Notes: generated by a model from the sequence alone, not told the origin. DNA of 64,000 bases from Candidatus Kaiserbacteria bacterium (GCA_026713605.1 JAPOOC010000008.1:16889-80888); one strand, 5' to 3'; shown: positions 4,922 through 53,815, counted from the stretch's first letter. Numbers and translations: made by a program.

Positions 4922-6370
<1,449 letters not shown>

Positions 6371-26265: not shown

Positions 26266-26309
26266 TTCCATGGTGTAGCATTTTTTGTATTGTGTATACT
26301 AATAGTATC

Positions 26310-27554: not shown

Positions 27555-27711
27555 ACTTAATACACATAGTCCGCTTGCAAATATGGTAGGGAGACCGTAT
27601 ACTGTACAGTAAGTCGTAAGGGACAAAACTATGAAACAGTACATAAAAACACAAACACGAATAGGTATGTGGTGTGTGTAGCAAACTAACCCTGCGACTC
27701 TTTAGTAGTGC

Positions 27712-27787
27712 AGCGGGGTAGAGCAGTCAGGTGGCTCGCCAGGCTCATAACCTGGAGGTCGTTGGTTCAAATCCAACCCCCGCTACC
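27712..27787 (+). tRNA. tRNA-Met (anticodon CAU; elongator Met or Ile2-lysidine type), CCA encoded
   Basis: Acceptor agcgggg/ccccgct, anticodon stem ccagg/cctgg, loop ctCATaa, T-loop ttcaaat, 3' CCA present. Confidence 0.7.
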
Positions 27788-27880
27788 AAATAGTATTTCA
27801 ATCTTGTATCGTTATATCATGCGGTAGGGTATATACAAACGCTCCGTTTGGCTGATTATATGAAAAATACAACATAAAAC

Positions 27881-28843: not shown

Positions 28844-28955
28844 CCCACGGCTTGTGAGGATATGCTACAATAATTTGGCTGGCTACATAAAGAGAAGGAG
28901 GCCGGCAATAACAACTTTTTAAACTTTTTAATCAGAACAAAGAAAGGAGGACATT

Positions 28956-29345
28956 ATGTCCTACCCCTCGATTCACACCCAGTTGCAAAAGATGGGTGCA
29001 ACCCTGGAGAATGCAACTGATGATCAGATGCAATCTGCATTTGTTGAATCTTTCCAGGAAGATCTCCCTCTCGGCTTTGCCAAGGTGGAGGAATTAGTTT
29101 GCAAGTTTAATGGTAGTGGTAAAGATCGGGTCATGCTTTCGCTTGACCCGAAGTCACCCGAAGGGCAGCAGTATGCTCGGCTTCTCGGTCCTGATGTTCC
29201 CCGGCAAGTGCTGGAGCGTCACTTTGATGTGTCGTTTGGTTTCTACAATTGCTGCGGTGGTGTGGTGTCTGATGATAAGGCCAACCTCAGGATGACTATG
29301 CGCGAACAAATTGAGGTACAGCATCCAAATTTTGTTGACTGTTGA
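28956..29345 (+). CDS. hypothetical protein
   Basis: SD AGGAGG upstream. 129 aa. Followed by a strong terminator. Confidence 0.45.
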   Translation: MSYPSIHTQLQKMGATLENATDDQMQSAFVESFQEDLPLGFAKVEELVCKFNGSGKDRVMLSLDPKSPEGQQYARLLGPDVPRQVLERHFDVSFGFYNCCGGVVSDDKANLRMTMREQIEVQHPNFVDC

Positions 29346-29374
29346 GTTACCCTGTTGTTATCTTTTGCTACAAC

Positions 29375-29412
29375 ATACCCCGTTATCCATATGGATAACG
29401 GGGTTTTTTCGT
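29375..29412. terminator. bidirectional rho-independent terminator
   Basis: accccgttatccatatggataacggggttttttcg. Confidence 0.7.
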
Positions 29413-29439
29413 TGATTGGTGGTAGTGTGCAGTGCGGTG

Positions 29440-30732
29440 CTATGGTGACTGTTCTTCTTGTATAGTGGTGAGGAGTTTTTCAGCTCGGTTAATTCTGTTG
29501 CGAAATTCATCAAACCTTTCCGTCACTGCCTGTTCTTTTTCAAGGTCTCCAACACACTGGTTCAGTTGCTCTTCTTCTGCGGAGAAAGTTGCGAGTAGTA
29601 TGTCAGAAAGAGACACTTGTATACTATTGACAAAGTGTTTGAAAAGATATTCGTCAATTTTAGAGATTTCATCTATTGACGAATCCATTTTTTCAACCAA
29701 GGAAATGATGTCATCTTCAAAGAGTGATAGGTGCACAAGGGGTAAGTTTTCTAACGGAGATTCAGATGGGGAGAAAGAGCCGTCATCGTTTTTGATAAAG
29801 CCATACTCAAGTGTTACACCACTTTTTTTGTTTATTTCCATAACCTTGTACCATTTTTCCTCTGATGCAGGGTCGTAATCTTCTTGCATCTTTTTGGGGA
29901 GATTGCGTCGCTCTCGCAACCTTCCTTTGTTGGGGAGCACCTCATCAGTTTGCACAATTGCTTCACCGCTGTCTAAATCAAAGATGCCTCCGTCAAAGTG
30001 GTGGAGAAAGTCATCAAGCTTAGCTGTTCTAAAGGCACCAATTCTTTTCTTTCTTCCACACTTCACAAAGACGATAAACGCCATCATCTCAAGATACTCT
30101 GATTTTCTCTTAAAATATTCGGGTTGCTCTTTCAAATCTGTGTTCCCAAAATTATACTCCAATTCTTTTACGCGTTTTATATGCTTTTCAATTTTTTCTG
30201 GGTTGCGAAATGCCGTATACTTTGTCATATCAATCCTACCATCTTTATCCAGAAAGAATATTCCCTCTTCCTGCATTTTCTCAACTGCCTGTATGCACAG
30301 TGAGGTGAGTTTTTCATATGCCTCTTTTTCCGCTGGACTCACAAAAACCTCCGGTGCCTTTTCCTCAATCTCTCTTTGTGGCGTATCCTCCGCCTCCTCT
30401 GGGTGTACATCTGCGACACCTTCGTCTTCCTGCACAGTAGCGGTAGCACTTTTTTCCTTGCTATCAATAACTTTTTGGTTTGAAAGGTGTTCTTCCGGGC
30501 GATTTTCGCTCACTGTTTCGTTGTTTGTTTCTTGCGGTTGCACTGGATTGTTGTCACCATACTCTTCTTCAGCGGCGTGTTCTTCCGATGGTGTGAAGCC
30601 CTCCTTCCACGGAGATCCTTGTTTGACCCAACCTATCAAATCTCCCAAAGTTTTCTTCTTTGTTTCTTTCTCGGGGGAAGGGGTTACCTTTCTTTTTTTG
30701 TCGATACGGTTGAGAGAGTTTTTAAATATCAT
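29440..30732 (-). CDS. hypothetical protein, paralog A of an uncharacterised family (acidic, disordered N-terminus)
   Basis: 430 aa. C-terminal ~230 aa align to the downstream gene (IEKH...EY.K.SEYLE; DD..H..D..ID; EYGF...LENLPLVHLSL vs FYGV...IANIPLLYLAL). Confidence 0.55.
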   Translation of the reverse strand: MIFKNSLNRIDKKRKVTPSPEKETKKKTLGDLIGWVKQGSPWKEGFTPSEEHAAEEEYGDNNPVQPQETNNETVSENRPEEHLSNQKVIDSKEKSATATVQEDEGVADVHPEEAEDTPQREIEEKAPEVFVSPAEKEAYEKLTSLCIQAVEKMQEEGIFFLDKDGRIDMTKYTAFRNPEKIEKHIKRVKELEYNFGNTDLKEQPEYFKRKSEYLEMMAFIVFVKCGRKKRIGAFRTAKLDDFLHHFDGGIFDLDSGEAIVQTDEVLPNKGRLRERRNLPKKMQEDYDPASEEKWYKVMEINKKSGVTLEYGFIKNDDGSFSPSESPLENLPLVHLSLFEDDIISLVEKMDSSIDEISKIDEYLFKHFVNSIQVSLSDILLATFSAEEEQLNQCVGDLEKEQAVTERFDEFRNRINRAEKLLTTIQEEQSP

Positions 30733-30815
30733 TATTTACAGTATACACGGTAAAACTATGTCATCTCCCAAAAGACCTCTGCATCAACATTTGAATTTTT
30801 TGTAATTCTTGATAA

Positions 30816-31958
30816 TTACTCTAATAAGGTTTGTGGAATTTCAACCAAAGGTTTCATGCCCAACTTTTTTGCGAAGAATTGGTCTGTGCAATAGAAAAAT
30901 GCGTTGAGGATGTTTTCGCATTCATATCTATCTTGCAGTGCTTGCTCCACCTTATCCTCTATTTCCATAGTGCCTTTGGGCAGAGAAAGGGCATTCTCCG
31001 CTTTTTTGATGTGTCTGGCAATACTCTTTTTATCAAGACGGGTTTTGTGTTGTACCGTTCTCAAAGATTTGGCGAGCTGTCCGATAATATATTTGCTGAA
31101 TTGCAAATTTTTAACTGCATGGTCTGTTTGGGAGTGAGTTTTATCTATAAGATTAGGAATTAAGTTACCAGGGAGGGCGAGGTAGAGAAGTGGGATGTTT
31201 GCTATGGACTCCATGGGTACGTATATTCCCTTTTCTTCGTCGAATGCAACTCCATAGAACTCACTGGGTCCCTCTTCGTTGTGCTGTATGATTTCTCTGA
31301 GTTTCTTTTCTTCTATTTCAACCTCCCCTCTTTTTGTTTTGCTTGTTTTAGTTGTTACATCAACACCGCAAAGCGGGAAGTCACCGTCTATTGAAAAATC
31401 AATGCCGTGGTAGACGTCGTCGTATGGTGCGGCTATTCGAACGACCATGTCCTGTGGTATGAATTGGAGTAGATGGTTGTAAACATCTTTTTCTTTGGTG
31501 GAAAACCGGTACTTTTTGTAGAATTCTTTGATATTATCTATTTCATCAAGAAAGTATTCAGTTGTTTTTAGCAGGTTAATCGGGATAATTTTTTCAAGAT
31601 ATTCAGAGTTTTTCCAGTATTCCGTTTTTCCTTCTTTCTGTTTTACCATATTAGCGTACTGTCGATGTTTTTCGATGGTGTCGGTTCCGTATCGTTCGGT
31701 GTACCGGTCCATATCAGTTGCCCCGTCTTCAAGAGATGACAGGATGCCATACTTTTTTAGTGTTTTGCTATACTGAAGTATCGCATGCATTACCTGTTGT
31801 TCTCGTTTGCGTTTTTTCTCCACCCTATACTCCTCTTGTTCTGTGAGAAATTTTTCTTGCTTCCTGGGTGCAGGGGGGGGTATGGGTGGTGGGTATCGCC
31901 CTGGCACTGGTTCTATTCCTCGGTTCATGTTCGGCATAGTATTCACAGTGTACCTCAT
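30816..31958 (-). CDS. hypothetical protein, paralog B (Pro-rich N-terminus)
   Basis: 380 aa. Paralogous to 29440-30732. N-terminal PPPIPPPAP. Confidence 0.55.
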   Translation of the reverse strand: MRYTVNTMPNMNRGIEPVPGRYPPPIPPPAPRKQEKFLTEQEEYRVEKKRKREQQVMHAILQYSKTLKKYGILSSLEDGATDMDRYTERYGTDTIEKHRQYANMVKQKEGKTEYWKNSEYLEKIIPINLLKTTEYFLDEIDNIKEFYKKYRFSTKEKDVYNHLLQFIPQDMVVRIAAPYDDVYHGIDFSIDGDFPLCGVDVTTKTSKTKRGEVEIEEKKLREIIQHNEEGPSEFYGVAFDEEKGIYVPMESIANIPLLYLALPGNLIPNLIDKTHSQTDHAVKNLQFSKYIIGQLAKSLRTVQHKTRLDKKSIARHIKKAENALSLPKGTMEIEDKVEQALQDRYECENILNAFFYCTDQFFAKKLGMKPLVEIPQTLLE

Positions 31959-32002
31959 TTATTTGGGTACCGTGGTATGAGTGTGTAAGGCGTGATGTAT
32001 CC

Positions 32003-32224
32003 CTAATCTTTGCACATCTTCAGCAGTGTCAGAGAGGCCGCGAGAAGCACAAAGATAACATACGGGTCAATGTAGTTCCACAGTGCTGGATCGCCACCGA
32101 TTGGACCGTTCCAGTATTGATTCCACAATACCAATCCGGCACCGATGAGGGAGAGGACTGCGATAACAAGATGCAATGTTTTGTTCATAGTATTTTGTAA
32201 GGAGTGAGTAAAAATATAGTACAA
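32003..32224 (-). CDS. small membrane protein (hypothetical)
   Basis: 73 aa, two TM helices. Confidence 0.4.
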   Translation of the reverse strand: MYYIFTHSLQNTMNKTLHLVIAVLSLIGAGLVLWNQYWNGPIGGDPALWNYIDPYVIFVLLAASLTLLKMCKD

Positions 32225-32269
32225 CGGCTATATTTATACAAAGTATATCAGGAAAAAATACCGTGTTAG

Positions 32270-32343
32270 TGCTGACGGGTGGATTTGAACCACCGACCTT
32301 AGGTTTATGAGTCCTACGCTCTAACCGACTGAGCTACGCCAGC
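32270..32343 (-). tRNA. tRNA-Met/fMet (anticodon CAU)
   Basis: Reverse complement folds: acceptor gctggcg/cgtcagc, D-stem gctc/gagc, loop ctCATaa, T-loop ttcaaat. Confidence 0.7.
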
Positions 32344-32548
32344 GATAGTGGTATAGTACCACACACCGTTTCAAAAAAATAAGCAGGTATACTGCAGGCG
32401 TGTGGGATATATACATGGTATATATGTACGAGATGTGTGTCTGTTTATTTGTACGGGTACTCACTCCGCGGGTATATGCGCACGGTATATACCAGCTCAT
32501 TCGCTGCACAAACAAAAAACTTTGTTTTTTGATTTGTCTACTCATTCC

Positions 32549-32619
32549 GCGGGTATAGTTTAGTGGTATGACGCGGCCTTCCCAAGGCCGAAACGGGAGT
32601 TCGATTCTCCCTACCCGCA
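32549..32619 (+). tRNA. tRNA-Gly (anticodon CCC)
   Basis: Acceptor gcgggta/tacccgc, anticodon stem cggcc/ggccg, loop ttCCCaa, T-loop ttcgatt. Confidence 0.75.
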
Positions 32620-32755
32620 CTTACCGGGAGTCCTTGTTTTTCATGGGAAGGAATATTCCTATGCGCAGATTTCCCTTGCTGAGTTCTCATGCCCACTTGT
32701 TACTGCTTTTTTCTTGTGTAAGAGGGGTTTATTTTAACGGTATACTGAATAGTAT

Positions 32756-33727
32756 ATGGAAGAGGGTATTATGCAGAATGCAACAAGTAGTCCGCTGTCG
32801 GTGTTTTGGTTGTCGGTGGATAAAATTGATCCAAACCCATTTCAGCCGAGAAAAGAATTTGCGGATGATAAATTGCAGGATTTGGCGCAGTCAATTCGGC
32901 GGTATGGTGTGTTGCAGCCGTTGGTGGTGACAAAGAAAGAGGCGATTGCCGATACTGGTGATATGTCTGCGCGTTACGAGTTGATTGCGGGGGAGCGACG
33001 ACTGCGTGCGTCAAAAATTGCCGGATTGTCTGAAGTGCCGGCGGTTATCCGTGTTGATGTGACGGAGGATAATGTTCGACTTGAGCTGGCGATGATAGAG
33101 AACTTACAACGGGACGATTTGAATCCGATTGATCGTGCTCGTGCGTTCAAGCGACTGATTGAAGAATTTAGTATGACGCACACTGAGGTAGCGCAACGAA
33201 TGAGTCGTAGTAGGGAATACATTTCAAACAGTTTGCGTCTGTTGACGCTGCCAGAGGATATGATCCAGGCGGTAACTGATAGGAGGATATCAGAAGGGCA
33301 TACCCGACCGCTTTTGATGTTGGTTGAAACTCCTGATGACCAACGGGCACTGTTCGATGAGATTGTGCATCGCAAAATAACCGTGCGGGATTCAGAGCTC
33401 ATTGCGCGTCGCCAGGCGAAAAATCGTGCTCGGAAAATAGCCCATGATCCGTATGTGCAGCGGGCGCAGTCAGTATTAGAAGGTTTTCTGGAGACGCGTG
33501 TGCATATTCGCTCGCAAGGAGAAACCGGCGGCAAAATTGTTATTGACTATTTTTCTGGAGAGGATTTGGAGAGTATTGTTGGTAAATTGCAGCATGCGCC
33601 TGGGGCGGAGCAGATAGGTAGTGTTGCGGACACATCTGTAGCGGTATCTCTTGAAGATGGGGATATGGTTGGTGAGCCAGAAGATGTTGAGGACGAAATG
33701 TATAACTTTAAGAACTTTTCTTTATAG
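32756..33727 (+). CDS. parB: chromosome partitioning protein ParB/Spo0J
   Basis: ParB box (YELIAGERRLRASKIAG), N-terminal DPNPFQPRK, HTH region. Confidence 0.8.
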   Translation: MEEGIMQNATSSPLSVFWLSVDKIDPNPFQPRKEFADDKLQDLAQSIRRYGVLQPLVVTKKEAIADTGDMSARYELIAGERRLRASKIAGLSEVPAVIRVDVTEDNVRLELAMIENLQRDDLNPIDRARAFKRLIEEFSMTHTEVAQRMSRSREYISNSLRLLTLPEDMIQAVTDRRISEGHTRPLLMLVETPDDQRALFDEIVHRKITVRDSELIARRQAKNRARKIAHDPYVQRAQSVLEGFLETRVHIRSQGETGGKIVIDYFSGEDLESIVGKLQHAPGAEQIGSVADTSVAVSLEDGDMVGEPEDVEDEMYNFKNFSL

Positions 33728-35195
33728 CATTGCGGATGCGAGCGCGAGCTTCGGATGTTTTGACCCAGTCAAGCCATTTTTTATTCACGGTTGTTTTTTT
33801 GCCGGTTTTGATATTAACGATGTCACCGTTTTGTAGTTCGTGGCGGAGAGAAACATACTTACCATTGACAAAGGCACCTTCAGCATGCTTGCCGATGTCA
33901 CCGTGAATTGCAAACGCAAAATCAACCGGTGTCGCTTTTTGTGGCAGATCAACCACTTCGCCTTTTGGAGTGAAAATAAACATTCGCTCCTGCAGGAAGT
34001 CCGCTTGCATGGTGCCCATAAAATCTGGATCCTCAACTGTTTCTCGTTGCATTGCAGCAATGCGCTCTGCCCACGGCACCTGCTTTTCACCTTTTTTATT
34101 GGCGAGCAGTTTGTCGAACCACTCCAATTCTAAACTTACCGTTCCGTGCCGCTTACCTTTATACTCAAAATGCGCGGCAACACCGAACTGTGCGTGTTGG
34201 TACATGTCGTGTGTCAGTATCTGCACTTCAAGGATGTGCTTGTCTATGAGGATTCGGGTGTGGAGTGCTTGATACCCGTTTGGTTTCGGTAGTGAAATGT
34301 AATCCTTGAATGCGCCGGGAATGGATCGCCATTCTGCGTGTAGTATCCCCAGCACATTGTATGCGTCGGGTATGGTGTGTACCAGTATCCGTAGTGCCGT
34401 CAAATCTTGTATTTGCTCCAGCGCGTATTTTTTATGTCGCATTTTCATGGCGGTGCTGTACACACTCTTAATGCGGGAAGAGATGGTCGCGGTAGTAATG
34501 TCCATGGCAACAAGCACCTTTTTTACCTTCTTTTCTATGGCAGCCATTGAGATTGAGCCGATAGTGGTGTCGATCTCTTTCTTCAGGGTGGTGTAGGTAG
34601 TTGGATCGAGGTGTTTGAAGGCAAGTTCTTCCAGTTCTGTTTTAATCATTCCCATACCGAGTCGATCTGCTATCGGTGCATAGACCTGTTGGGTCTCTTT
34701 GGCGATGCGCTTTTGCTTGGTTTTCGGCACTGCCTCAAGGGTGCGCATATTGTGCAGTCGATCCATCAATTTGATAATAATAACCCGAATATCTTTTGAG
34801 GTTGCAACGAGGAGTTTCTGTAGTGATTTCACCCGTGCATCAAGCCCTTGGTACCGCACCTTACCAAGATGGCTGACTCCGTCCACGAAGAATGCTACTT
34901 TTTTACCGAACATTTTTTCCAACTCCTTTATGGTTGTGTCGGTGTCCTCAATGGTATCGTGCAACATGCCGGCGGTGATAACTTCCGCGGCCATACCAAT
35001 CTCCGCAAGCAGTCGACCGACTTCTAATGGGTGTGTGTAGTACGGTTCCCCCGAGTATCGTGTTTGTCCTTGATGTTTTTCTTGTGCAAATGTGCATGCC
35101 TGCTCAATCATTTTTCTTTCTCTGGCAGTACACTTCTGCTGCATAGCAGCGATAATGTCTTTTGCGGTGATATACTGTTTCTGTTTTTGGGGCAT
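33708..35195 (-). CDS. short bifunctional (p)ppGpp synthetase/hydrolase (RelA/SpoT homolog)
   Basis: HD hydrolase motif (HPLEVG...HDTIEDT), synthetase core (RLHNMRTL...DIRVIIIKL), C-terminal TGS-like segment. 495 aa, so lacks the long regulatory C-terminus. Confidence 0.8.
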   Translation of the reverse strand: MPQKQKQYITAKDIIAAMQQKCTARERKMIEQACTFAQEKHQGQTRYSGEPYYTHPLEVGRLLAEIGMAAEVITAGMLHDTIEDTDTTIKELEKMFGKKVAFFVDGVSHLGKVRYQGLDARVKSLQKLLVATSKDIRVIIIKLMDRLHNMRTLEAVPKTKQKRIAKETQQVYAPIADRLGMGMIKTELEELAFKHLDPTTYTTLKKEIDTTIGSISMAAIEKKVKKVLVAMDITTATISSRIKSVYSTAMKMRHKKYALEQIQDLTALRILVHTIPDAYNVLGILHAEWRSIPGAFKDYISLPKPNGYQALHTRILIDKHILEVQILTHDMYQHAQFGVAAHFEYKGKRHGTVSLELEWFDKLLANKKGEKQVPWAERIAAMQRETVEDPDFMGTMQADFLQERMFIFTPKGEVVDLPQKATPVDFAFAIHGDIGKHAEGAFVNGKYVSLRHELQNGDIVNIKTGKKTTVNKKWLDWVKTSEARARIRNAIKKSS

Positions 35196-35269
35196 ATGCT
35201 ATTACTATATATCGTATTTCTATAGCGGCGGTATGCATGGTAATTGGGTGCTACGAATTGTGTTGCCGA

Positions 35270-35536
35270 TTAAAAAACTTGCGACCTGTCGCCTTGCGGT
35301 GGTGCTTGTCGTCCCTGCTTTGGCTCAAATTCGTTTAGCTCAAGATAATATTTACCTTCTCGGGACTTTTTAATATCCACATTGATAAATCCGTTTTCCT
35401 TTTGTTTTTGTTGCTGAATCCATGCAACTGCTTTCTCAACCTGTATGCCTAATGACCCTACAACGAAATCAGGTGCATTTTCGTTTCTGCTAAAAAACAA
35501 TCCGTCCGCAAATTTTTTCTCACTGTTATTTTCCAT
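35270..35536 (-). CDS. hypothetical small protein
   Basis: 88-aa ORF, no recognised domain. Confidence 0.35.
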   Translation of the reverse strand: MENNSEKKFADGLFFSRNENAPDFVVGSLGIQVEKAVAWIQQQKQKENGFINVDIKKSREGKYYLELNEFEPKQGRQAPPQGDRSQVF

Positions 35537-35613
35537 ATAGCAACACTATACCACAAAGTTACCGTAGTGAGAGTTTTGTATACTGCTGATGCGGGTGATG
35601 ATGGTTTTTGGTG

Positions 35614-35684
35614 CGGACTGTAGCATAGTGGTAGTGTGCACGCATGGGGTGCGTGTGGTCCGGGTTCGATTCCCGGCAGTCCGA
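35614..35684 (+). tRNA. tRNA-Pro (anticodon GGG)
   Basis: Acceptor cggactg/cagtccg, anticodon stem cacgc/gcgtg, loop atGGGgt (G37), T-loop ttcgatt. Confidence 0.7.
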
Positions 35685-35697
35685 CTTGGGTGGGATG

Positions 35698-35770
35698 GGG
35701 CTGTTAGCTCAGCTGGTAGAGCGCTCGCATGGCATGCGAGAGGTCAGCGGTTCGATTCCGCTACAGTCCA
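35698..35770 (+). tRNA. tRNA-Ala (anticodon GGC)
   Basis: Acceptor gggctgt/acagtcc with the G3:U70 identity pair, loop atGGCat, T-loop ttcgatt. Confidence 0.8.
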
Positions 35771-35830
35771 CCGGATAGCAAACTGTACGAATCGGTATAT
35801 CGTTTGGGGGATGTCGTATAGTATAGGTAT

Positions 35831-41847: not shown

Positions 41848-42351
41848 TTATATTTTTCTGCTGTCGTATGCCCAGTGCAACACTGCTTGGCGCTGTCTTT
41901 TTCTACACTCTAAATCTTTGGTGGCGCAGTTGTTTTGTACTGCTGTTATATGCCGTTTCATATTTTTCCAGCGTTTGATTTGGCGGACATCATCCTCATG
42001 TCGCCTGCCCACATAGTAGCGACAGTACCACTGAAACCATCCACGCGGATCATCTTTGTGGAGCCAACCCTTTTCTTTCCAGTGCTTGAGCGGCATAGAA
42101 GCATGTACTTTGAAATAGTTGAGATTTTTATCCCGTTCCCCATCAGCAACTTTTGCCTTTTTGAACCAACTTTTTGGAAATTCGTCTGTGTAGCCATCAA
42201 AATACATACCGCCGAAAACCCCCAGCTCAAGCATCTGTTTTGGAGAAAGTTGTGGCTTGAAGTCAGTGGCGAAGTGTTTACCTGCGGGCTCGGTGCATGT
42301 GTAGCTGTACCCTTTCTGCATCTTGTCACTTGTTTTGATTTTTTTGCGCAT
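41848..42351 (-). CDS. conserved hypothetical protein (Trp-rich motif GWFQWYCRYYxGRR)
   Basis: 167 aa, basic. Motif looks like a conserved family but I cannot name it. Confidence 0.4.
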   Translation of the reverse strand: MRKKIKTSDKMQKGYSYTCTEPAGKHFATDFKPQLSPKQMLELGVFGGMYFDGYTDEFPKSWFKKAKVADGERDKNLNYFKVHASMPLKHWKEKGWLHKDDPRGWFQWYCRYYVGRRHEDDVRQIKRWKNMKRHITAVQNNCATKDLECRKRQRQAVLHWAYDSRKI

Positions 42352-43137: not shown

Positions 43138-43548
43138 TTAGAGTAGATCTTTATACTCCAGAAAATTTTTCTTGACAAGTGTTTTCCATGCATCAGTTTC
43201 ACCGCCGGAACCTGATAGATGACTTTTGTGATAAACAAGCAGCACAATGACCTGTTTCTCAGCTGCGCACATCGCAACAATACACCTGTTGCCCGATCCG
43301 TGTCGTGACTGAGTGGTTTTAGCAACACGGAACTCGGTTTTGCAGATTTTAATACCTCGCTTGTCGATGATCATTCTTGCCACCCCTCTCTCAAGAAGTG
43401 TATCAAACATTCTGAAACTTCTTTCTATAGATGTCTGTGTTTTATCCCATGCGTCTTTATACTTTTTTCTAAATTTTTTGACATAGTGTTTCTCAGAAAA
43501 CGGTGTGAAAGAAACAGCATACTCGGCATTGCTATTGTTAGTAGACAT
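43138..43548 (-). CDS. type II toxin, RelE/HigB/Gp49-like fold (partner of the Panacea antitoxin)
   Basis: EFRVAKTTQSRHGSGNRCIVAM...VIVLLVYHKS matches the RelE/HigB pattern (ELRv...yRviY...vivLl..hKk). Overlaps the upstream gene by 11 nt. Confidence 0.55.
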   Translation of the reverse strand: MSTNNSNAEYAVSFTPFSEKHYVKKFRKKYKDAWDKTQTSIERSFRMFDTLLERGVARMIIDKRGIKICKTEFRVAKTTQSRHGSGNRCIVAMCAAEKQVIVLLVYHKSHLSGSGGETDAWKTLVKKNFLEYKDLL

Positions 43549-44230
43549 ATTTCGGATCCTCCTGAATGATCAATTCATATGGAATAATCTCATTTTCCTT
43601 GCAGAATGTGTATGGTATTTGTTGATGAGTGAAGTCAACGATTTCTTTTGTCCGTTTGTTTTTCCACTTTTTTGAGATATCGGTAATAAGCTTTTCTTCC
43701 TCACGGGAAAGTATTGCGGTTGATTCTCGCTCTCCTCCCTTCTTTTGAGATATAAGTAGTGCTCCGTCATCTGTTTTTTCTATGTCAATTTTACCCGCTT
43801 CATATAGCTCGTCCACGACCCGAAAGTATGTGTCAGGTACCGGTCCGTATGCTATCTTTCGATACTGCATACCACTCATGCTTTCTAAGTGATCATAATA
43901 CCATGCAAAATCTGCAAGGTAGAGCAGTTTTGCAAGTTTGGTCTTTGGCACCCTGCCATCTCTTGAAAGATTGTTTCGTAAAAAAGCGAAGAGCATTTGT
44001 TTGTATTTTTCAAAATTTGGTTTTTCTCCACCTAAAAAATCATTAACAGATACGCCGAGAATGTCGGCAAGTTTTTTTGCTTCTGTAAGTTTCGGGTCCC
44101 GCACCCCTTTTTCAAGTGCGATATATGAGGCGCGGGAAATGTTTAATTTGTCAGCAATTTCCCGTTGCGAAAACTTCCTTTGCATGCGCACATCTTTTAT
44201 GGTTGAGTTGTTGCTGTTTTTGTTATTCAT
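43538..44230 (-). CDS. HTH-XRE + Panacea (DUF4065/SocA-like) domain antitoxin
   Basis: N-terminal HTH (FSQREIADKLNISRASYIALEKG). C-terminal KLAKLLYLADFAWYY...IAYGPVPDTY, the Panacea signature (KLxKLLY...AW.yGPV..Y). Confidence 0.65.
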   Translation of the reverse strand: MNNKNSNNSTIKDVRMQRKFSQREIADKLNISRASYIALEKGVRDPKLTEAKKLADILGVSVNDFLGGEKPNFEKYKQMLFAFLRNNLSRDGRVPKTKLAKLLYLADFAWYYDHLESMSGMQYRKIAYGPVPDTYFRVVDELYEAGKIDIEKTDDGALLISQKKGGERESTAILSREEEKLITDISKKWKNKRTKEIVDFTHQQIPYTFCKENEIIPYELIIQEDPKYVY

Positions 44231-44705
44231 GCCGTTGTTATTACTTACAGCATATCTCCCTGATAAAAAATGTCAATAAAGTTGTACACAGCGTGTCTGT
44301 TTTTTGATATTAAAAGTGCCGGTAAGACCGCTCGTAAAGCAGATTTGGACACATCACGCTGTTGTGTGGTGTGTCTTTGTATTGTGTGGTGGTCTTAACA
44401 CTGTTTTACTCAAACTTGAGCAGGAGTGTGACGATACTTCGCACGCTCCACCCGCCAACACGCCCTAACCCATCCCATACGCTCCAAAACTACAGTAAAC
44501 ACCTTCACCAAGTCGCTCCGCTTACTCCGGACTCGTGTTTCACTTCGTTACACACCAGATCTTCCGTGCGCTCCGATCCCGCGCCAATCTTTGCCCACAT
44601 TCTCTTTTGCCTTTTAAGCGAGCGCAGTCGCATTTGCCATTTTTGCTGTTCTAGTAAGTTTTATATCTAATGTCAAAAGTGTTTTACAAGAGCGCTCCAC
44701 CGCTT

Positions 44706-45161
44706 CTAAAATAACAGTTCTATCTTTTTTGAAAACATGCCGTTTTCTGGTATTTCATTATCCGCTCTCTTTGATAGTTCATATGCTTTTTTTATTTCAG
44801 TTTTACTCCTCTGCTTTAACACACTGTCAGTGTGACTATGCAGCATATCAAAAAAGTACATCATTGTTTGTTCACGGTTTTTCTTTCTCAGAGCTAATTC
44901 TTCATAGGTTTGTTGTGATACAACAAACTCTAGCCATCCGTATGCATTGGAAATAAGGTGCGAAAAAAGATGGCTCATGCACCCAAAATCTTTCATCAAA
45001 TGCTCCAGGTTTTTCTCTTGTACAAAGGTTAAGAAATCGTCATCCGCACCGTTCTTAAAAAAATAATTACCCCAATCTGCCAGGTGGGACATTATGTTTG
45101 AATCTAAGTACATAAACCTGCAATCCGGTTTGCCGAAACATGAACCTAAATATGTAAGCAT
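44706..45161 (-). CDS. hypothetical protein (AT-rich island)
   Basis: 151-aa ORF divergent from the GHKL operon. Confidence 0.4.
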   Translation of the reverse strand: MLTYLGSCFGKPDCRFMYLDSNIMSHLADWGNYFFKNGADDDFLTFVQEKNLEHLMKDFGCMSHLFSHLISNAYGWLEFVVSQQTYEELALRKKNREQTMMYFFDMLHSHTDSVLKQRSKTEIKKAYELSKRADNEIPENGMFSKKIELLF

Positions 45162-45263
45162 ATCATTATGGTAGCAAATTACCTCTTACTTTGGTATATC
45201 ATTTCCCTGTATTAAACAGAAACACTATATTTATTACCACAGTACTATATTTAGTATATAATG

Positions 45264-45300: not shown

Positions 45301-45525
45301 ATGGAGAAATCCAAGGAAAAACAGGAACGATTCAGACGGCTGGCGACGGCACGCACAAACTCCGTATTGAAAACACTCAATACGCTTGGACATTGTTCCA
45401 ACAGAAGTGCCTACCATTACTCTGAGGAGGAGGTGAAAAAAATATTCTCTGAGATTGAGAACGCTGTAAGAGGTGTTAAGAGTAAATTCCATTATCCGAG
45501 AAATAATAAAAAGTTCAGTTTATGA
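45301..45525 (+). CDS. small basic protein, translationally coupled to the GHKL ATPase gene
   Basis: 74 aa. Stop overlaps the start of the next gene (atga). Confidence 0.45.
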   Translation: MEKSKEKQERFRRLATARTNSVLKTLNTLGHCSNRSAYHYSEEEVKKIFSEIENAVRGVKSKFHYPRNNKKFSL

Positions 45526-48077
45526 ATCACAGGAAAAATAAAAAAATACTTTTAGACTTACTCAAATGTCAAACTTCTGAAGAACTTGAAAAGATTATTC
45601 AGAAAGAACGCCTTGATAAGGAAGCGTGGATTCCTTATGGTGGACGCTCAAACAATGTAGGAACAGTAGAAGGACAAATGAGGGAAGCAGAAAACGCATT
45701 GATGGAGAAAGTTACAAATTCAATTGACGCAATTCTGATGAGAAGATGTTATGAGGAAGGGATTGATCCTTATGATAAAAGTGTTGCACCAAAAACAGTA
45801 GATGAAGCAGTTGAGCGCTTCTTTGGAGGCAGAGAAAAAATTAGGGAAAAAAGATCAGAGTTTGCCAAAGAATGGTTGCGTATTACTGCTGAAGGAAAAA
45901 AAGACAGACCAACAATAACAATTGTAGATAAAGGTGAAGGGCAAGAGCCAAACATGATTAAAAAAACCATCCTTAGCCTTAATGAAAATACAAAAGAAAG
46001 AATTCCTTTTGTATACGGAACATATAATCAGGGTGGTTCAAGCCCTCTTGGTTTTGCAGGAGCGCCTGAAAAATATGATTTTAATTATCTCCAACTTGTT
46101 TTGTGTCGCAGCTCTCTAAAAAATGGAGATAAAAAAGATGGTAATCACGACCACTTTGGTTTTACGGTTGTGCGAATGCGCTTTGATGAAAGTTCAGAAA
46201 AATATGTTTATGAATATCTTGTCGAGAAAGATACAGAAAATATTTTTTCTTTTCCTATGGATGAGGTGATAAAAATAGATGATTATAAATTTGAGGAGGG
46301 TTGTGTAATTAAATTATATGATTATCAGCTTGCAAAAGGAGGGAATATTATTTTTCGTGGCTTTAATGAATTTATTGAAAAGAAACTTCCCAATTCTCCT
46401 TTACCAATTTACTTAAAAGAATTACGAAATTATAAAGGTGATGATAACTATACAATATTTGGATTAAAAGAAAAACTGATTAGAAGAAAAGATATACTGC
46501 GGAGTGGATACCCCCAAGCACTTCCTATTGACCTTGGTGAGATTGGCAAAAAAGAGATAAATCTTTTTATATTAAAACACAAGGCAGAGGCTGAAGGAGG
46601 GGAAATCAAATCGTACTTAGATATGTCTGAACGAGTTTTCTTCATAAAGGATGGGCTTGTTTTGCATGCGGAAACTAAATCTTGGCTTAAAAATGAATGT
46701 GGTTTAATTGATCTGTCTCCATATGTTATAGCATTTATTGATATTTCAACAATTAGTCCTGCAGTTGCCAAAATGCTTCATTCAGGAAGAGAAAAATTTA
46801 AGAACAATGCGACAACAAAGACAACTCTTAATAGATTAAAGGTATTCTTTTCCGGTGAAGATTTTAAAGACCTTGATAAAGAATACGGGAGACTGGGACT
46901 AAACTCGGATACTAAAATTGAAGATAGGGATATCAAAAAAGCAATACTAAAAGAAGTTGAAAACCAACCGAAATTAAAAGAACTTTTTAATATCGGAGTT
47001 GATTTTCCTGTTAAAAAAGGGCAAACATATACGCCACCAAAGATTGACTCGAAATATCAGGGAACATATCTCCCTGAAAAATTTAATCTTCTGGGCACAA
47101 ATCCACGAGAAATTGAAGAAAATTCATATTGTAGAATATCCTTTGATACCGGTGCTGATACGGATTTGTTTGAACGGCAAGAGGATAGAGGTGAGTATGA
47201 TTGGGAAAAATCAGAAAATTTTGACATTACTTTTTTATCGTTTAGAAATGGAATAACCACCTTTCGTGTAGATCCAAAAGAAAAAACAAAGCCACCTGAA
47301 GAAGAAGCATTGATTTTTTCTCTTAGTGTACCGTCCAAAGACATTGAATTAACAAGAACAATTAATATTTTATATAAAGAAAAAGTTCCCTATAACGGAA
47401 AGAGATTTCCAACATTTTTTAAACCACCTGAAGAGGTGAAAATTGTAATAGGAAAAAAGACATCCTTGCGCATAAAAACAGATGCGGATAATGATTATAT
47501 CAGTCGAGATGAAGCCCCTGGTACCATAATTTTTAAAAAACATAATGATCTTGACAACAGTACACCAAAACTTAAGGATGGAATTCTTTCTATTCAAATG
47601 CAATACACAGGAAAGGAAATAAAAAAAGTAGAAAATATAGACATAACCGTAAAAGATAGGGAGAAACACTTTGATTTCTCATTACCGGTAAAAATTATTC
47701 GAGACAAAAATAATCCAGAGGTAGATTTGCCGGAGATAGAAGTGGTAGATAAAACAAAATGGCAGCATCATACCCCAGAATGGGATCAAGAGGTTATCGC
47801 CAGAATTCCATCTTGGACAGAGTTGAAAAAAATCAGAATCAATACTGATTCTGATCCGTTTGAAGATTTGCGAGAGATACCTGGCGAACAAAGAGAAATT
47901 GCAAAGACTCTTCTGATAAAGAAGATTTACAGGGATTCAATTTGGATGTTTCTTGAGTTTAGGGATCTTAATCTCACTAGTGATAGCGATCGAGATGAAA
48001 GAGATATTGTTTTTGAGAAATCAATTCGTGCTGCATCAAAGATAACAATTCAGGATATCAAAAAATTAATTCGTTAA
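45522..48077 (+). CDS. large GHKL/Bergerat-fold ATPase domain protein (paraMORC/HSP90-like N-terminus, ~650-aa uncharacterised C-terminal region)
   Basis: N-box EAENALMEKVTNSIDA (aa 55-70), G1 box IVDKGEGQE (aa ~135-143), G2 box GTYNQGGSSPLGFAG (aa ~167-180). No match seen for nuclease motifs in the rest. Confidence 0.6.
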   Translation: MNHRKNKKILLDLLKCQTSEELEKIIQKERLDKEAWIPYGGRSNNVGTVEGQMREAENALMEKVTNSIDAILMRRCYEEGIDPYDKSVAPKTVDEAVERFFGGREKIREKRSEFAKEWLRITAEGKKDRPTITIVDKGEGQEPNMIKKTILSLNENTKERIPFVYGTYNQGGSSPLGFAGAPEKYDFNYLQLVLCRSSLKNGDKKDGNHDHFGFTVVRMRFDESSEKYVYEYLVEKDTENIFSFPMDEVIKIDDYKFEEGCVIKLYDYQLAKGGNIIFRGFNEFIEKKLPNSPLPIYLKELRNYKGDDNYTIFGLKEKLIRRKDILRSGYPQALPIDLGEIGKKEINLFILKHKAEAEGGEIKSYLDMSERVFFIKDGLVLHAETKSWLKNECGLIDLSPYVIAFIDISTISPAVAKMLHSGREKFKNNATTKTTLNRLKVFFSGEDFKDLDKEYGRLGLNSDTKIEDRDIKKAILKEVENQPKLKELFNIGVDFPVKKGQTYTPPKIDSKYQGTYLPEKFNLLGTNPREIEENSYCRISFDTGADTDLFERQEDRGEYDWEKSENFDITFLSFRNGITTFRVDPKEKTKPPEEEALIFSLSVPSKDIELTRTINILYKEKVPYNGKRFPTFFKPPEEVKIVIGKKTSLRIKTDADNDYISRDEAPGTIIFKKHNDLDNSTPKLKDGILSIQMQYTGKEIKKVENIDITVKDREKHFDFSLPVKIIRDKNNPEVDLPEIEVVDKTKWQHHTPEWDQEVIARIPSWTELKKIRINTDSDPFEDLREIPGEQREIAKTLLIKKIYRDSIWMFLEFRDLNLTSDSDRDERDIVFEKSIRAASKITIQDIKKLIR

Positions 48078-49378
48078 ATTTTTTCCATCACCACGATATA
48101 TTCATATTCGTACGCTCTTATCTTTGAAGGATTATCTTTTCCTGTAAATTTTCCTGTCTCTATGTCGCGCCATGGAGTTATCATTTTATTGGGAATTTCT
48201 CGTTTAATAAACCTAACCTTTTCAAATCCGGCATGTTGCATTTGCTCTGCAGCGACTTGTGCATTAAGTATGGCAACACCTCGTAAATTAGTATTACCAA
48301 TAATAATACATGCCTTGCCATCTTTTTTAAGAATACGATACATTTCTCCAAAAACTTTTTTCATATCCAAGAAATAATTCGCAACATCTGTTGCGAGTGA
48401 TTGATTAACCTGTGATAAGTCATTTACAATTGATTTTGCAATGGTACTATTGAATTCTCCGGTTTTTCTTCTCTTTGAACTTGTACCAATAAAGTTTCTA
48501 CGAAAGTCAATAAATTCATCACTAAACCTGCTCCATCCTTTAAAGTGTTTTGGATCATTACCAAACCAAAGCAAAGATAGTTGATGTAAATCAGCGTATT
48601 CATATGAAGTAACATATGGGGGTGAAGTGATAATTAGGTCAACACAGCCGGATTCAAGAGGAAGTTTTTTTGTAGAATCTCTACGATACATTTTTGCAGA
48701 AACTTTTTCATTGCCGGATTCAACAAGTTCAGAATAAAACTTCTCATTTTTCTTAATCATTGAGTCAAGGTGGCGTAAAAATGATTCTTTTACATTAGGG
48801 ATATCTTTATCCTTGTCTATCGTTGGTTTAATACTCTTCATCAACCAGCGTGAACAATTCTTAAGATTGTGTGAAAAAGCACAAAGAAAAAAACGCCTGA
48901 CATTATGGTTTTTTATTTTCTTGATTGCAAAATAAATCCTTTCTAACTCTTGAGCCGTTTTTTCGTCAAACCAATAATTGATTCGCCCGTGTCTATCTGA
49001 AAAGGTTAAAGGAGTGCTTTTATAATATGTTAAAAACTTGTCTTTGTAATTGGTTAGCGTTTTAGGTTTAATAGGGGTAGTTTTTGTTTGAGTTATAAGT
49101 TTTGCAATGGGGTTTATATCAAAACCAATACTTTTGTGACCCAACATTTTTGCCTCCACCAGGGTCGTGCCGCAACCACCAAAAAGATCACATATAATCT
49201 GCTCATCATTAGGTGCATAATCTTTTATTAATTTTTGTACAATTTGGGGGATAAATTTTGCAGGGTAACGGTGATAACTGTGAGTAAAAGCCGTTGTTTC
49301 TGATCTCCCCACATCACGGAAAGACCAATTTTTTCTTGGTTTTAATTTTTTAAAAGATTGTTGAAGAGAGGTAAGCAC
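48074..49378 (-). CDS. N6-adenine/N4-cytosine DNA methyltransferase (amino-MTase)
   Basis: Motif I DLFGGCGTT near the N-terminus and motif IV SPPY (IITSPPYVTSYEY). Converges on and overlaps the GHKL gene by 4 nt. Confidence 0.75.
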   Translation of the reverse strand: MLTSLQQSFKKLKPRKNWSFRDVGRSETTAFTHSYHRYPAKFIPQIVQKLIKDYAPNDEQIICDLFGGCGTTLVEAKMLGHKSIGFDINPIAKLITQTKTTPIKPKTLTNYKDKFLTYYKSTPLTFSDRHGRINYWFDEKTAQELERIYFAIKKIKNHNVRRFFLCAFSHNLKNCSRWLMKSIKPTIDKDKDIPNVKESFLRHLDSMIKKNEKFYSELVESGNEKVSAKMYRRDSTKKLPLESGCVDLIITSPPYVTSYEYADLHQLSLLWFGNDPKHFKGWSRFSDEFIDFRRNFIGTSSKRRKTGEFNSTIAKSIVNDLSQVNQSLATDVANYFLDMKKVFGEMYRILKKDGKACIIIGNTNLRGVAILNAQVAAEQMQHAGFEKVRFIKREIPNKMITPWRDIETGKFTGKDNPSKIRAYEYEYIVVMEKI

Positions 49379-49592
49379 AAGTTTTACATGAACATAACTA
49401 TTATACCAAAATTATAATAATCCGCCGGGCGAAGGAAATCCGCCGTTTCCGCAAGGCAGGCAAGCGGAAACTTGACGGATTGCAAGAGTTCTCTCGCCCC
49501 ATCTCACCCATCATTTTCTTTTGCCTTTCAGGTGCACTTGTCGTAGGACTGGTGCTGGTGAAAGGTGGTGAAGTAATGAATGGTTTGTGTAG

Positions 49593-49667
49593 TGGACCCG
49601 ACAGGGCTCGAACCTGCGACCTCCGGAGTGCAAAACCGGTGCTCTAAGCCAACTGAGCTACGGGCCC
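49593..49667 (-). tRNA. tRNA-Ala (anticodon UGC)
   Basis: Reverse complement: acceptor gggcccg/cgggtcc with G3:U70, loop ttTGCac, T-loop ttcgagc. Confidence 0.75.
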
Positions 49668-52620: not shown

Positions 52621-52640
52621 AGGTGGGGTGGGGTGGGGTA
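52621..52640 (+). promoter_or_regulatory. G-quadruplex-forming motif upstream of the tandem pilin genes
   Basis: aggtggggtggggtggggta has four G-tracts separated by single T, 43 nt upstream of the pilin ATG. Confidence 0.5.
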
Positions 52641-52682
52641 TATACTGGTATTGTTAGTAATTATAATAATTTTTTTAATACT

Positions 52683-53249
52683 ATGAATAATGAAAATAAT
52701 AATAGAAATAGGGGTTTCACCTTGATTGAGTTGCTCATTGTTATCGCTATCATTGGTGTGTTGGCGGCGACGGTGGTGGTATCGCTCGGAAGTCAGACAG
52801 ATCACGCAAAAGAAGGTTCACTAAAAATTGGTGTATCGTCTGTTCGATCGCTTGCGACTGTTGAGGCAACATCGCCATCAAAAGGAAATGACCTTAGTGG
52901 TACTAAGTTGTGTTCGTATATATATGGTAAGGTTTCTGGTGAAAAAGAAGATTGGACATGGAAGGCTAGTGTAGTTAATGATGCCATCAGCGGTACTCCT
53001 GTCATTTGCAGTGCTGATGATTCTACAACGAAAGAAAAGTCCGGCGAGATTTGTTGCTCGGCTGATGGTAACAAATGGGTGATTTGGAGTGCTCTGCCTA
53101 CGGCGGATGGTACTGGCGCCGAAAAAGATGTTTACTGCGCTGATAGTTCTGGGTTTACAGGTGAGGTAGAGTTGCAGGCAGACAGTGGAAGTGCGTCTAC
53201 GAAAGTGACGGATGGGCGGTCGTCGGATAATCCTACATCCTGTCAGTAG
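52683..53249 (+). CDS. type IV pilin / pseudopilin (prepilin N-terminal methylation motif)
   Basis: NRGFTLIELLIVIAIIGVLAA class III signal. C-terminal Cys pair. Confidence 0.8.
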   Translation: MNNENNNRNRGFTLIELLIVIAIIGVLAATVVVSLGSQTDHAKEGSLKIGVSSVRSLATVEATSPSKGNDLSGTKLCSYIYGKVSGEKEDWTWKASVVNDAISGTPVICSADDSTTKEKSGEICCSADGNKWVIWSALPTADGTGAEKDVYCADSSGFTGEVELQADSGSASTKVTDGRSSDNPTSCQ

Positions 53250-53266
53250 AAAATAGTTTGTACTGT

Positions 53267-53815
53267 ATGCTGAATATTGGACAGACAAGACAAAAGAATG
53301 CAGTAGGGGGTTTTACCTTGATTGAGCTTTTGATTGTGATTGCAATTATTGGAGTATTGGCAGCCACTGTTCTTGTTGTGCTGGGGAGTCAGACAAACAG
53401 TGCGACTGAAGGTAGTGTGCGGTTGAGTGTGTCCAGTATGCGAACCTTGGCGTATTCTGAGGTGGCGATAAACACAAAACTTTCTGGGCAGGCGTTGTGC
53501 AACGGCATATATGGCAGGGTTTCTGGTGAAAAAGATGGTTGGGAGTGGACGAATACACGAACATGTGAGCAAGGTGATTTGATCGCTGCAAGCGGTTTAA
53601 CGCAGGCCGCCGCAAGATCGAGCAATGCGAATGCTGCGGCAGGGGAGATTTGTTGTTTCTCAAGTAACACTGATTGGGTGATTTGGGGTGCTTTACCTAC
53701 GGCGGATGGTACTGGTGCCACCGAAGACGATATTTATTGCGCTGATAGCAAGGGGTTTCTTGGCAAGCATAAGGGTAGGCCTCAAGCAACTGGTACCAAT
53801 GCGAAATGTAAGTAA
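53267..53815 (+). CDS. type IV pilin / pseudopilin, tandem paralog
   Basis: GGFTLIELLIVIAIIGVLAA. Shares the C-terminal GEICC...WVIW.ALPTADGTGA...YCADS block with the upstream pilin. Confidence 0.8.
   Translation: MLNIGQTRQKNAVGGFTLIELLIVIAIIGVLAATVLVVLGSQTNSATEGSVRLSVSSMRTLAYSEVAINTKLSGQALCNGIYGRVSGEKDGWEWTNTRTCEQGDLIAASGLTQAAARSSNANAAAGEICCFSSNTDWVIWGALPTADGTGATEDDIYCADSKGFLGKHKGRPQATGTNAKCK

Follow-up and report, generated by a model that had tools for sequence, protein, structure and literature searches.

What kind of system is formed by a large unannotated ATPase, the tiny gene that precedes it and the DNA methyltransferase (MTase) gene that it runs into? The question is raised by a 4.2-kb cassette in a metagenome-assembled genome (MAG) of Candidatus Kaiserbacteria (Patescibacteria, or candidate phyla radiation, CPR), analysed here within a 64-kb stretch of DNA, the window, in which all positions are counted. 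An earlier note on this DNA had singled out the locus as a candidate uncharacterised defence or modification system, and that proposal survives the analysis. The three genes are best read as a horizontally mobile immunity system resembling restriction-modification (R-M), a reading to which we give a probability of roughly 0.55 and whose defence role we infer.

The cassette and its linkage in other genomes

The cassette consists of the following open reading frames (ORFs), with lengths in amino acids (aa).

45301-45525, + strand: small leader gene, 74 aa (ORF call)
45522-48077, + strand: divergent GHKL ATPase (Hsp90/MORC-like), 851 aa, putative restriction or effector component (ORF call)
48074-49378, - strand: amino-DNA MTase (N6-adenine or N4-cytosine), 434 aa, putative self-marking component (ORF call with Pfam and PADLOC matches)

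The ORFs and both overlaps are exactly as the earlier note gave them. The 74-aa and 851-aa ORFs are coupled through an ATGA overlap that can be read from the sequence, and the ATPase and MTase ORFs converge tail to tail, their stops overlapping by 4 nt. Database entries identical to all three proteins in the Kaiserbacteria MAG (a 100% match for the 851-aa protein) are named "hypothetical", "hypothetical" and "DNA methyltransferase".

The MTase matches PF01555 N6_N4_Mtase (1.2e-18) and, over its full length, the PADLOC model MTase_II (3.9e-56). Both of its diagnostic motifs could be placed.

49163-49189, - strand: motif I (S-adenosylmethionine, AdoMet, binding), D64-LFGGCGTT-72, aligned to motif I of TTHA0409 (2zie) and M.PvuII (1boo)
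48614-48625, - strand: motif IV (catalytic), S252-P-P-Y255, aligned to 2zie

FGGCGTT (aa 66-72) lies about 180 aa ahead of SPPY (aa 252-255), an order that is permuted relative to the beta-class enzymes 2zie and 1boo. In the 2zie alignment, the SPPY region at chain positions 36-59 pairs with query positions 241-264, and motif I at 213-268 with 35-91. Its family membership suggests that the enzyme marks host DNA as self.

A scan of one genome per species gave at least 514 loci encoding ATPase relatives, of which 80 were kept. The MTase-linked ATPases of 840-860 aa form clade A, about six of the 2,731 clusters of the whole family. The small ORF and an orthologous MTase are present in 16/16 complete relatives of this length examined, from several phyla, and the MTase orthologs, 53-80% identical, adjoin every clade-A ATPase gene. 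In all nine complete clade-A loci from species genomes the order is small ORF, ATPase and convergent MTase, as in the window. These loci come from Staskawiczbacteria, Saccharibacteria, Levyibacteriota, Parcubacteria, Humimicrobiaceae, Clostridiales and Gammaproteobacteria, and their ATPases share 33-67% identity with that of the window. The linkage is also carried by three more homologs found by exact sequence lookup, and a second subclade, from Chloroflexi, likewise has an adjacent MTase of the same family. The co-occurrence with MTases that the earlier note had set as a check is seen in every complete clade member examined. One of these (P0095) has the order MTase, small gene, ATPase and lies next to a serine recombinase gene; since the linkage is kept in this rearranged order, the association is not mere inherited synteny.

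The converse also holds. A reverse search of metagenome contigs with the MTase as query recovered ten loci, and the ATPase gene is present in all seven that extend far enough; these loci give the MTase no alternative restriction enzyme partner. The two proteins evolve differently: MTase identity stays at 72-80% in loci whose ATPases show just 25-63%, with L006 and L088 at 78-79% and 36%, respectively, while in L005 the ATPase is 59-63% identical, depending on the method, and the MTase 59%. The stronger conservation of the MTase, together with identity rankings of MTase and ATPase that are incongruent across loci, agrees with a shuffling of modules or with rapid change in the ATPase.

Some of the related loci are of separate interest. 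L012 (5974-10892, from a long-read MAG) has no intact ATPase ORF, an MTase match in two frames and a small ORF about 800 nt upstream, and is either a decaying cassette or the product of assembly indel errors. L007 (231-1658) and L009 (5101-6528), from a gammaproteobacterial and a Parcubacteria MAG, have near-identical flanks despite their different taxonomic labels, and both encode a 475-aa Schlafen AlbA_2 + HATPase_c_4 protein two genes upstream of the cassette.

The ATPase, its fold and its wider family

Conservation in the ATPase was measured in alignments of 31 and 85 homologs. The Bergerat motifs that had been picked out in its N-terminus are invariant or nearly so in both, and the domain layout below combines these alignments with the predicted structure.

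45522-46796, + strand: N-terminal strap and GHKL ATP-binding domain with a putative middle/transducer domain, together about aa 1-425, including a conserved loop [SG]-R423-[ED]
45705-45731, + strand: Bergerat motif I (N-box), E62-K-V-T-N66-S-I-D69-A70; E62, K63, N66 and D69 invariant, A70 at least 90% (85 sequences)
45927-45944, + strand: Bergerat motif II (G1 box), D136-K-G138-E139-G140-Q141; D136, G138, E139, G140 and Q141 invariant
46008-46037, + strand: Bergerat motif III (G2 box, ATP lid), F163-V-Y-G166-T-Y-N-Q-G171-G172; F163, V164, G166 and G171 invariant, G172 at least 90%
46797-47066, + strand: helical linker, about aa 426-515, partly of low confidence (helices at 430-488; predicted local distance difference test score, pLDDT, below 50 at 491-510)
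47067-47381, + strand: beta-sandwich domain 1, about aa 516-620, with the family-wide motif F541-x-T543...R552...G557 ("[FY]xTDAxNDYFxR")
47382-47726, + strand: beta-sandwich domain 2, about aa 621-735, a second copy of domain 1 that is confined to the MTase-linked clade (alignment)
47727-48074, + strand: small beta element and long helical hairpin, aa 736-851, putative dimerisation module; P737, W747 and N774 invariant

A fourth GHKL motif, G213-F-T215, is conserved at 90% or more, and both the catalytic Glu (E62) and the Mg-binding Asn (N66) are kept in the homologs. The protein has the Bergerat alpha/beta sandwich fold, with a GHKL-associated middle/transducer domain of about 220 aa predicted right after the ATP-binding domain, and its closest structural matches are the Hsp90 chaperones and the chromatin ATPases MORC2/3 and SMCHD1. 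Searches of the 851-aa protein against Pfam, PADLOC, NCBIfam, PHROGs and PDB (phmmer and profile searches) gave nothing useful, and Pfam HATPase_c and HATPase_c_3 do not match it at E values up to 0.1. HATPase_c_3 is reached via relatives: P0121 passes the cut-off of 25 bits with a score of 26.7, and three more reach 21.5-21.8 bits. The GHKL assignment thus fails at the level of a Pfam match for the window protein itself but is upheld by its fold and by a relative that passes the cut-off. These motifs mark the protein as a divergent GHKL ATPase that would be expected to hydrolyse ATP.

Beyond the motifs, the earlier note had recognised nothing in the remaining 650 or so residues. The sequence libraries are indeed silent on them, but the predicted structure indicates the middle/transducer domain, the two beta-sandwiches and the C-terminal helical hairpin. 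The second beta-sandwich appears as a repeat of the TDADNDY motif in the alignment, and in distant relatives just 15-17% of its columns are filled. The model, which is a confident one, contains no nuclease fold.

This last result bears on whether the 851-aa protein could be a disguised nucleolytic restriction enzyme, which would cut or nick unmethylated DNA with ATP hydrolysis licensing cleavage, as in MutL and type II topoisomerases. The candidate active sites would lie around N774/D776 in the C-terminal domain or in the TDxxNDY motifs, and the cassette would be one more ATP-dependent R-M variant. A tail-to-tail arrangement with a 4-nt overlap is typical of restriction and modification genes in type II systems, many family members stand alone as a self-sufficient effector might, and restriction enzyme models (BbrUII/HgiDII) from REBASE-derived PADLOC and NCBIfam overlap the GHKL-type region in a neighbouring protein family. 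A coupling of GHKL modules with nucleases is also classical, MutL, Topo VI and paraMORC3/VcSduA being examples (PMC2292703, PMC12137116). Apart from the missing fold, no PD-(D/E)xK, HNH, GIY-YIG, PLD or Toprim pattern was found among the invariant columns of the alignment, and no PD-(D/E)xK, HNH, GIY-YIG or PLD endonuclease domain was detected in either the 851-aa or the 74-aa protein. The only conserved polar residues in the C-terminal half are R552, N774 and D776, too few for any known nuclease site, and related operons have separate nuclease genes (FokI-like, Mrr_cat, YhcG, GIY-YIG-like), suggesting that the ATPase alone does not cut. A hidden nuclease is therefore possible but on the whole unlikely. 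In its favour, PglZ of the BREX systems is reportedly a cryptic nuclease that was recognised late.

An exhaustive profile search places the ATPase in a family that forms 2,731 clusters when grouped at 50% identity; of these, 1,052 have E values up to 1e-30, and almost all members are 750-860 aa long; no longer, fused members were seen among the best 150 of the 2,731 clusters. The family is spread patchily over many phyla of bacteria and archaea and is not a core gene in any sampled lineage. Its neighbours were surveyed in 66 more distant loci, ordered by the unweighted pair group method with arithmetic mean (UPGMA). In about 15 of these, phosphorothioation (PT) genes (DndB, SspC, the PAPS-reductase SspD, cysteine desulfurase) lie within three genes of the ATPase gene, which in some loci is embedded among them (L034, L040, and L030 with the order SspC-SspD-SspE-ATPase), and on Ensifer and Devosia plasmids it lies beside SspABCD. 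The modification module is thus swapped while the ATPase is kept, a pattern that a restriction-type effector would show. Other neighbours include GmrSD-like, YhcG PD-(D/E)xK, SspE and PDC-S02 proteins, which indicate defence islands.

The relatives found beside PT genes fill the same slot, next to or within SspABCD and DndB clusters, as the PT-dependent restriction proteins SspE, DndFGH, DndI and SspFGH. Identity with these, or with Pbe, was rejected, since PADLOC is negative and the domain descriptions differ: SspE and DndI combine DUF262 with HNH and have no sequence relationship to the 851-aa family, while SspF has a Walker A motif and SspH is FtsK-like. PADLOC assigned no family to the window ATPase or to seven distant relatives beside Ssp/Dnd genes, and no PADLOC or NCBIfam model matched the family members tested. 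In line with the earlier note, the family can be called uncharacterised, as no PADLOC model matches the ATPase or its relatives. A phage origin was rejected, with no INPHARED match and only three distant IMG/VR matches. It has been reported that 84% of sspBCD modules are without a known restriction partner (PMC8092258), a gap on which the link between the ATPase and PT genes may bear.

Other proteins in these PT clusters drew attention. UvrC-N/GIY-YIG-like proteins of 144-176 aa (NCBIfam E value 1e-7), encoded at 5221-5709 (+ strand) in L040 and recurring as cluster "c10" in L048, L050, L064 and L079, lie inside DndB/PAPS-reductase clusters next to ATPase relatives and may be the nuclease of those PT-linked systems. 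Beside SspABCD on the Ensifer and Devosia plasmids, L100 (3372-5702, - strand) and L101 (10663-13023, - strand) encode 776-786-aa "sensor histidine kinase" proteins, each paired with a hypothetical protein of 635-680 aa. Their N-termini match the BbrUII/HgiDII-family restriction enzyme models and their C-termini match histidine kinases, and they may be the HEF_HK/paraMORC-like proteins of PMC8011034 in a PT context.

Similarity of fold to Hsp90, MORC2/3 and SMCHD1, together with the missing nuclease, could also point away from immunity, to a module that reads methylation and regulates host genes or compacts the nucleoid in an epigenetic or chromosome-organising role, or to a specialised chaperone. 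CPR genomes are reportedly rich in methyltransferases, to judge from the title of a preprint. Such a role is quite improbable given the patchy, horizontally transferred distribution of the family outside any core genome, the low GC content of the locus with a toxin-antitoxin (TA) module and a tRNA gene alongside (see below), the fast divergence of the ATPase relative to the MTase, and the relatives embedded in Ssp/Dnd clusters or lying beside GmrSD-like, SspE, YhcG and recombinase genes. Identity to the Hsp90 proteins (HtpG, TRAP1, GRP94) is only 13-15%, with no sequence-level match, the C-terminal half with its beta-sandwiches is unrelated, and the context is DNA modification rather than proteostasis.

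Among described systems, the theme of a GHKL ATPase in a conserved DNA methylase neighbourhood, with nucleases near some relatives, is shared with the paraMORC ATPases of prokaryotic R-M operons, predicted by Iyer, Abhiman & Aravind in 2008 (PMC2292703). The earlier note was right about this prediction, while its remark that such proteins are experimentally uncharacterised is dated, as paraMORC3/VcSduA defends (PMC12137116). The signatures of paraMORC2-5 (ExxxH; a C-terminal nuclease of restriction endonuclease fold; TIR; HxH) are all missing from the 851-aa protein. Other differences are that the window protein does not match HATPase_c_3, that the cassette includes no superfamily II (SF-II) helicase or endonuclease partner, and that the methylase is an amino-MTase where that of paraMORC is usually Dcm. 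An SF-II helicase link was not seen in the ATPase neighbourhoods either. The architecture of a helical linker, one or two beta-sandwiches and a helical hairpin is not described in PMC2292703.

VcSduA, which is Shedu type I-D as well as paraMORC3, is an anti-phage GHKL nuclease whose ATPase-dead mutants lose defence (PMC12137116), a finding that supports GHKL engines as drivers of immunity. Like the 851-aa protein, it is a GHKL ATPase predicted as an entwined dimer with a clamp-like middle domain. VcSduA has a C-terminal DUF4263 PD-(D/E)xK nuclease and acts alone without a methylase, whereas the 851-aa protein has no nuclease fold, matches no Pfam or PADLOC Shedu model and is strictly paired with an MTase. 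The use of GHKL/MORC-like ATPases as R-M engines was thus already predicted in 2008, and only the nuclease-fused paraMORC3/Shedu branch has been tested. Three features distinguish the present case: an extensive GHKL family that lacks annotation and has a C-terminal architecture of its own, a cassette in which three genes include one for an amino-MTase, and a new family of leader proteins.

The small leader and a possible mechanism

The 74-aa protein carries the conserved motif RFxRLAxxRTxxVLxxLxxLGNCSNxxxYEYxxxDVxKIF, a conservation pattern that suggests a two-helix hairpin rather than a helix-turn-helix (HTH). It has no HTH or other family match in Pfam, NCBIfam or PADLOC and no PDB relative. 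A profile hidden Markov model (HMM) search finds the small gene directly upstream of every clade-A ATPase and of 14 of the roughly 66 distant homologs, with a gap of -4 to +16 nt in most loci. A profile search extends its family to at least 5,611 clusters (90% identity), which are annotated throughout as "hypothetical" and have no Pfam domain. In 5/5 contexts sampled, an operon near R-M-like genes (Dcm, Vsr, MutH-like) opens with the homolog.

These contexts differ in what follows the leader. In L111 it is a 516-aa HATPase_c_3 protein (38.8 bits), with no adjacent MTase. In L107 (5001-9158) the leader is followed by a 209-aa protein, a 740-aa protein with HATPase_c at 25.4 bits, just below the cut-off, and an AspBHI_N/Mrr_cat enzyme that is type IV-like; the operon adjoins a Dcm MTase and a MutH-like gene. 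L102 (6001-9808), L105 (6001-11275) and L109 (5001-8737) share an operon of leader, 621-641-aa protein, 286-298-aa protein and DUF6339 protein, which recurs in gut Firmicutes metagenomes beside Dcm, Vsr and MutH-like genes, is preceded in L105 by a gene for a FokI-cleavage-domain protein and looks like another uncharacterised restriction-type system. The 621-641-aa proteins carry N-box-like E[IS][CI]QNSLDA and G2-like GS[YF]GIG motifs but no Pfam domain. Their membership in the 851-aa ATPase family was rejected (HMM search negative, hhalign probability 0.2%); for want of profile similarity they are not counted as GHKL and are possible GHKL proteins at most.

Since the downstream genes differ between contexts, the small protein appears as a modular leader of restriction-like operons. 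It partners GHKL ATPases repeatedly but not exclusively, is not specific to the 851-aa family, and may be a controller or a cofactor. As a marker of restriction-like operons, the leader family could act as a genomic beacon for finding more of them.

Two departures from the usual leader slot were noted. A metagenome cassette (L090, 8824-9539, - strand) has two tandem leader copies upstream of the ATPase, 58% and 34% identical to the window copy. In two archaeal loci and one Chitinophagales locus (L013, 2448-3413; L032, 5988-7001; L061, 5922-6965) the slot holds instead a 321-347-aa protein with an N-terminal zinc-ribbon-like CxxC...CxxC and no family match, and its stop overlaps the ATPase start.

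A small protein that leads many different operons and pairs with a GHKL protein might be the substrate or repressor of a protein kinase, the pair controlling neighbouring immune genes. The GHKL superfamily includes histidine kinases, anti-sigma-factor kinases and CapK, and CapK/CapS pairs lie upstream of immune operons (PMC13373217). The family scan found no HisKA or STAS domain in the cassette proteins, the 74-aa protein is predicted as a helical hairpin and not a STAS fold, and the cassette offers such a pair no operon further downstream, as the ATPase gene runs into the convergent MTase gene; a kinase-substrate pair is accordingly very remote. Identity with CapK/CapS, which combine an anti-sigma kinase with a STAS protein (PMC13373217), was rejected on fold.

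The cassette is closer in layout to a type II R-M system with a C protein, sharing tail-to-tail genes for an MTase and a putative restriction component, a coupled small upstream gene, mobility and low GC. The MTase has the expected AdoMet motif I and SPPY, whereas the putative restriction gene encodes an ATPase without a nuclease fold, and no cognate endonuclease was detected. The 74-aa protein fits C proteins in size (about 70-100 aa) and in position but differs in having no HTH match, where C proteins have an HTH of the Xre/HTH_3 type, and no conserved C-box-like operator.

In the R-M-like immunity system proposed here, the MTase would methylate a specific motif in host DNA and so mark it as self. 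GyrB, MutL, Hsp90 and MORC are dimeric GHKL ATPases that close on ATP, and by analogy with the studied Hsp90/MORC/MutL-type enzymes the 851-aa protein may act in dimeric form. Two subunits would be joined through the C-terminal helical hairpin, and on binding ATP their N-terminal domains would shut into a clamp, lined by the beta-sandwich domains, whose TDxxNDYFxR motif may contact DNA. The clamp would engage unmarked DNA of phages or plasmids and so block its replication. The leader, translationally coupled to the ATPase and in the position of the C proteins of type II R-M systems, would most likely be a controller or cofactor that sets the timing and the amount of ATPase made or active.

Because the cassette has no recognisable nuclease, we take the effector step to be ATP-driven entrapment or compaction of DNA, or else cleavage by an unrecognised active site or by a nuclease acting in trans. 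Sister operons that supply nucleases in cis (FokI-like, Mrr_cat, YhcG, and GIY-YIG-like in PT clusters) argue that the ATPase core does not cut, while the many members that stand alone argue that it is self-sufficient. Our slight preference is for a clamp that damages DNA by a chemistry not encoded in any recognisable domain.

BREX defence has long been described as working without detectable DNA degradation. The cassette shares with BREX the self-marking by an amino-MTase and a large ATPase, but BREX systems have 4-8 genes including PglZ and the P-loop BrxC, none of which is in the cassette, and no PADLOC BREX model matches beyond generic MTase similarity. A stronger version of the R-M-like reading holds that immunity is nuclease-free and gated by methylation, with an Hsp90/MORC-like clamp that entraps or compacts DNA lacking the host methyl mark (or, in sister clades, the phosphorothioate mark) and silences it without cutting. 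Such a system would parallel, in prokaryotes, the MORC/SMCHD1-type silencing that eukaryotes apply to foreign DNA, might be related to it by descent, and would be governed by a new and widespread family of 70-80-aa leaders that partner GHKL engines. In this full form the proposal is rather unlikely.

Several observations weigh against an R-M-like immunity system. Modification genes are missing from the vicinity of about half of the distant loci, whose heterogeneous neighbours include housekeeping genes, so the ATPase family as a whole is not obligately dependent on modification. A DNA-binding fold was not detectable in the 74-aa protein; the region ahead of the small ORF has no inverted repeat in the window, nor is any operator conserved across five orthologous upstream regions. 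The near absence of the family from phages is neutral rather than supportive.

The first of these points would also suit a system in which the ATPase and the small protein form a self-contained defence or stress module, while the MTase is an independent orphan or anti-restriction methylase that is functionally uncoupled from them. The L111 operon, with its leader and GHKL ATPase but no neighbouring MTase, would fit as well. Such uncoupling is nevertheless improbable, as the MTase is present in every complete locus of the 840-860-aa clade in two gene orders, its orthologs are accompanied by the ATPase in all seven loci with enough DNA, the clade has its own extra beta-sandwich domain, and embedding of the gene in PT clusters goes beyond mere proximity. 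If the R-M-like defence role is true, it adds a compact 4.2-kb system to prokaryotic immunity and raises the question of what a GHKL clamp does to halt foreign DNA when no nuclease is apparent.

Setting of the cassette in the window

The locus is AT-rich relative to its flanks, as had been noted, with a GC content of 0.33-0.365 over 45-49 kb against roughly 0.45-0.51 in most flanking windows. The tRNA gene and the putative PanA-type toxin-antitoxin pair reported beside it were located, together with a further ORF and candidate control sites.

49592-49667, - strand: tRNA-Ala(TGC), with its 3' end facing the cassette
43538-44230, - strand: candidate antitoxin of the TA-like pair, 230 aa, HTH_3 + SocA_Panacea (family matches)
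43138-43548, - strand: candidate partner, a 136-aa ORF overlapping the antitoxin ORF, with a weak PHROG match only (phrog_5869, E value 9e-4)
44706-45161, - strand: 151-aa ORF, divergent from the small leader gene, no family matches
45234-45262, + strand: promoter-like site TTACCA-17-TATAAT, a 10/12 match to consensus, possible promoter or operator
45224-45236 and 45244-45256, + strand: 13-nt direct repeat ACTATATTTAnTA, overlapping the promoter-like site, candidate operator

The earlier description of an island with a TA module is plausible as regards the pair at 43138-44230, whereas the island has no bounding integrase and no att-like direct repeat of the tRNA-Ala 3' end was found around the cassette. 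The GC content of the TA-like pair is about 0.40 against about 0.34 for the cassette, which suggests separate acquisition. The 151-aa ORF was rejected as a member of the cassette, since its homologs are found in 0/80 related loci.

The promoter upstream of the leader had been called near-consensus, a description that lacks statistical support: the match is 10/12, and such sites are not enriched in the window DNA (21 found against 17 +/- 4 in shuffled sequence). The overlapping ACTATATTTAnTA repeat is not kept in the five orthologous upstream regions.

An imperfect 31-nt repeat with 77% identity, ending in TTTTGCCTTT, is found at 44584-44614 and 49498-49528 and brackets a 4.9-kb segment that holds the cassette as well as the 151-aa ORF. 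The repeat, of which there is a third, partial copy at 42139-42160, could be an insertion scar or due to chance.

Elsewhere in the window, nine of the ten tRNA genes (Trp, Leu, Arg, Phe, Met x2, Gly, Pro, Ala) fall at 23720-35772, on both strands. The tandem ORFs at 52623-53249 and 53258-53815 (+ strand) have type IV pilin-like N-termini (GFTLIELLIVIAIIGVLAA) and similar C-terminal halves, and are probably CPR pilins.

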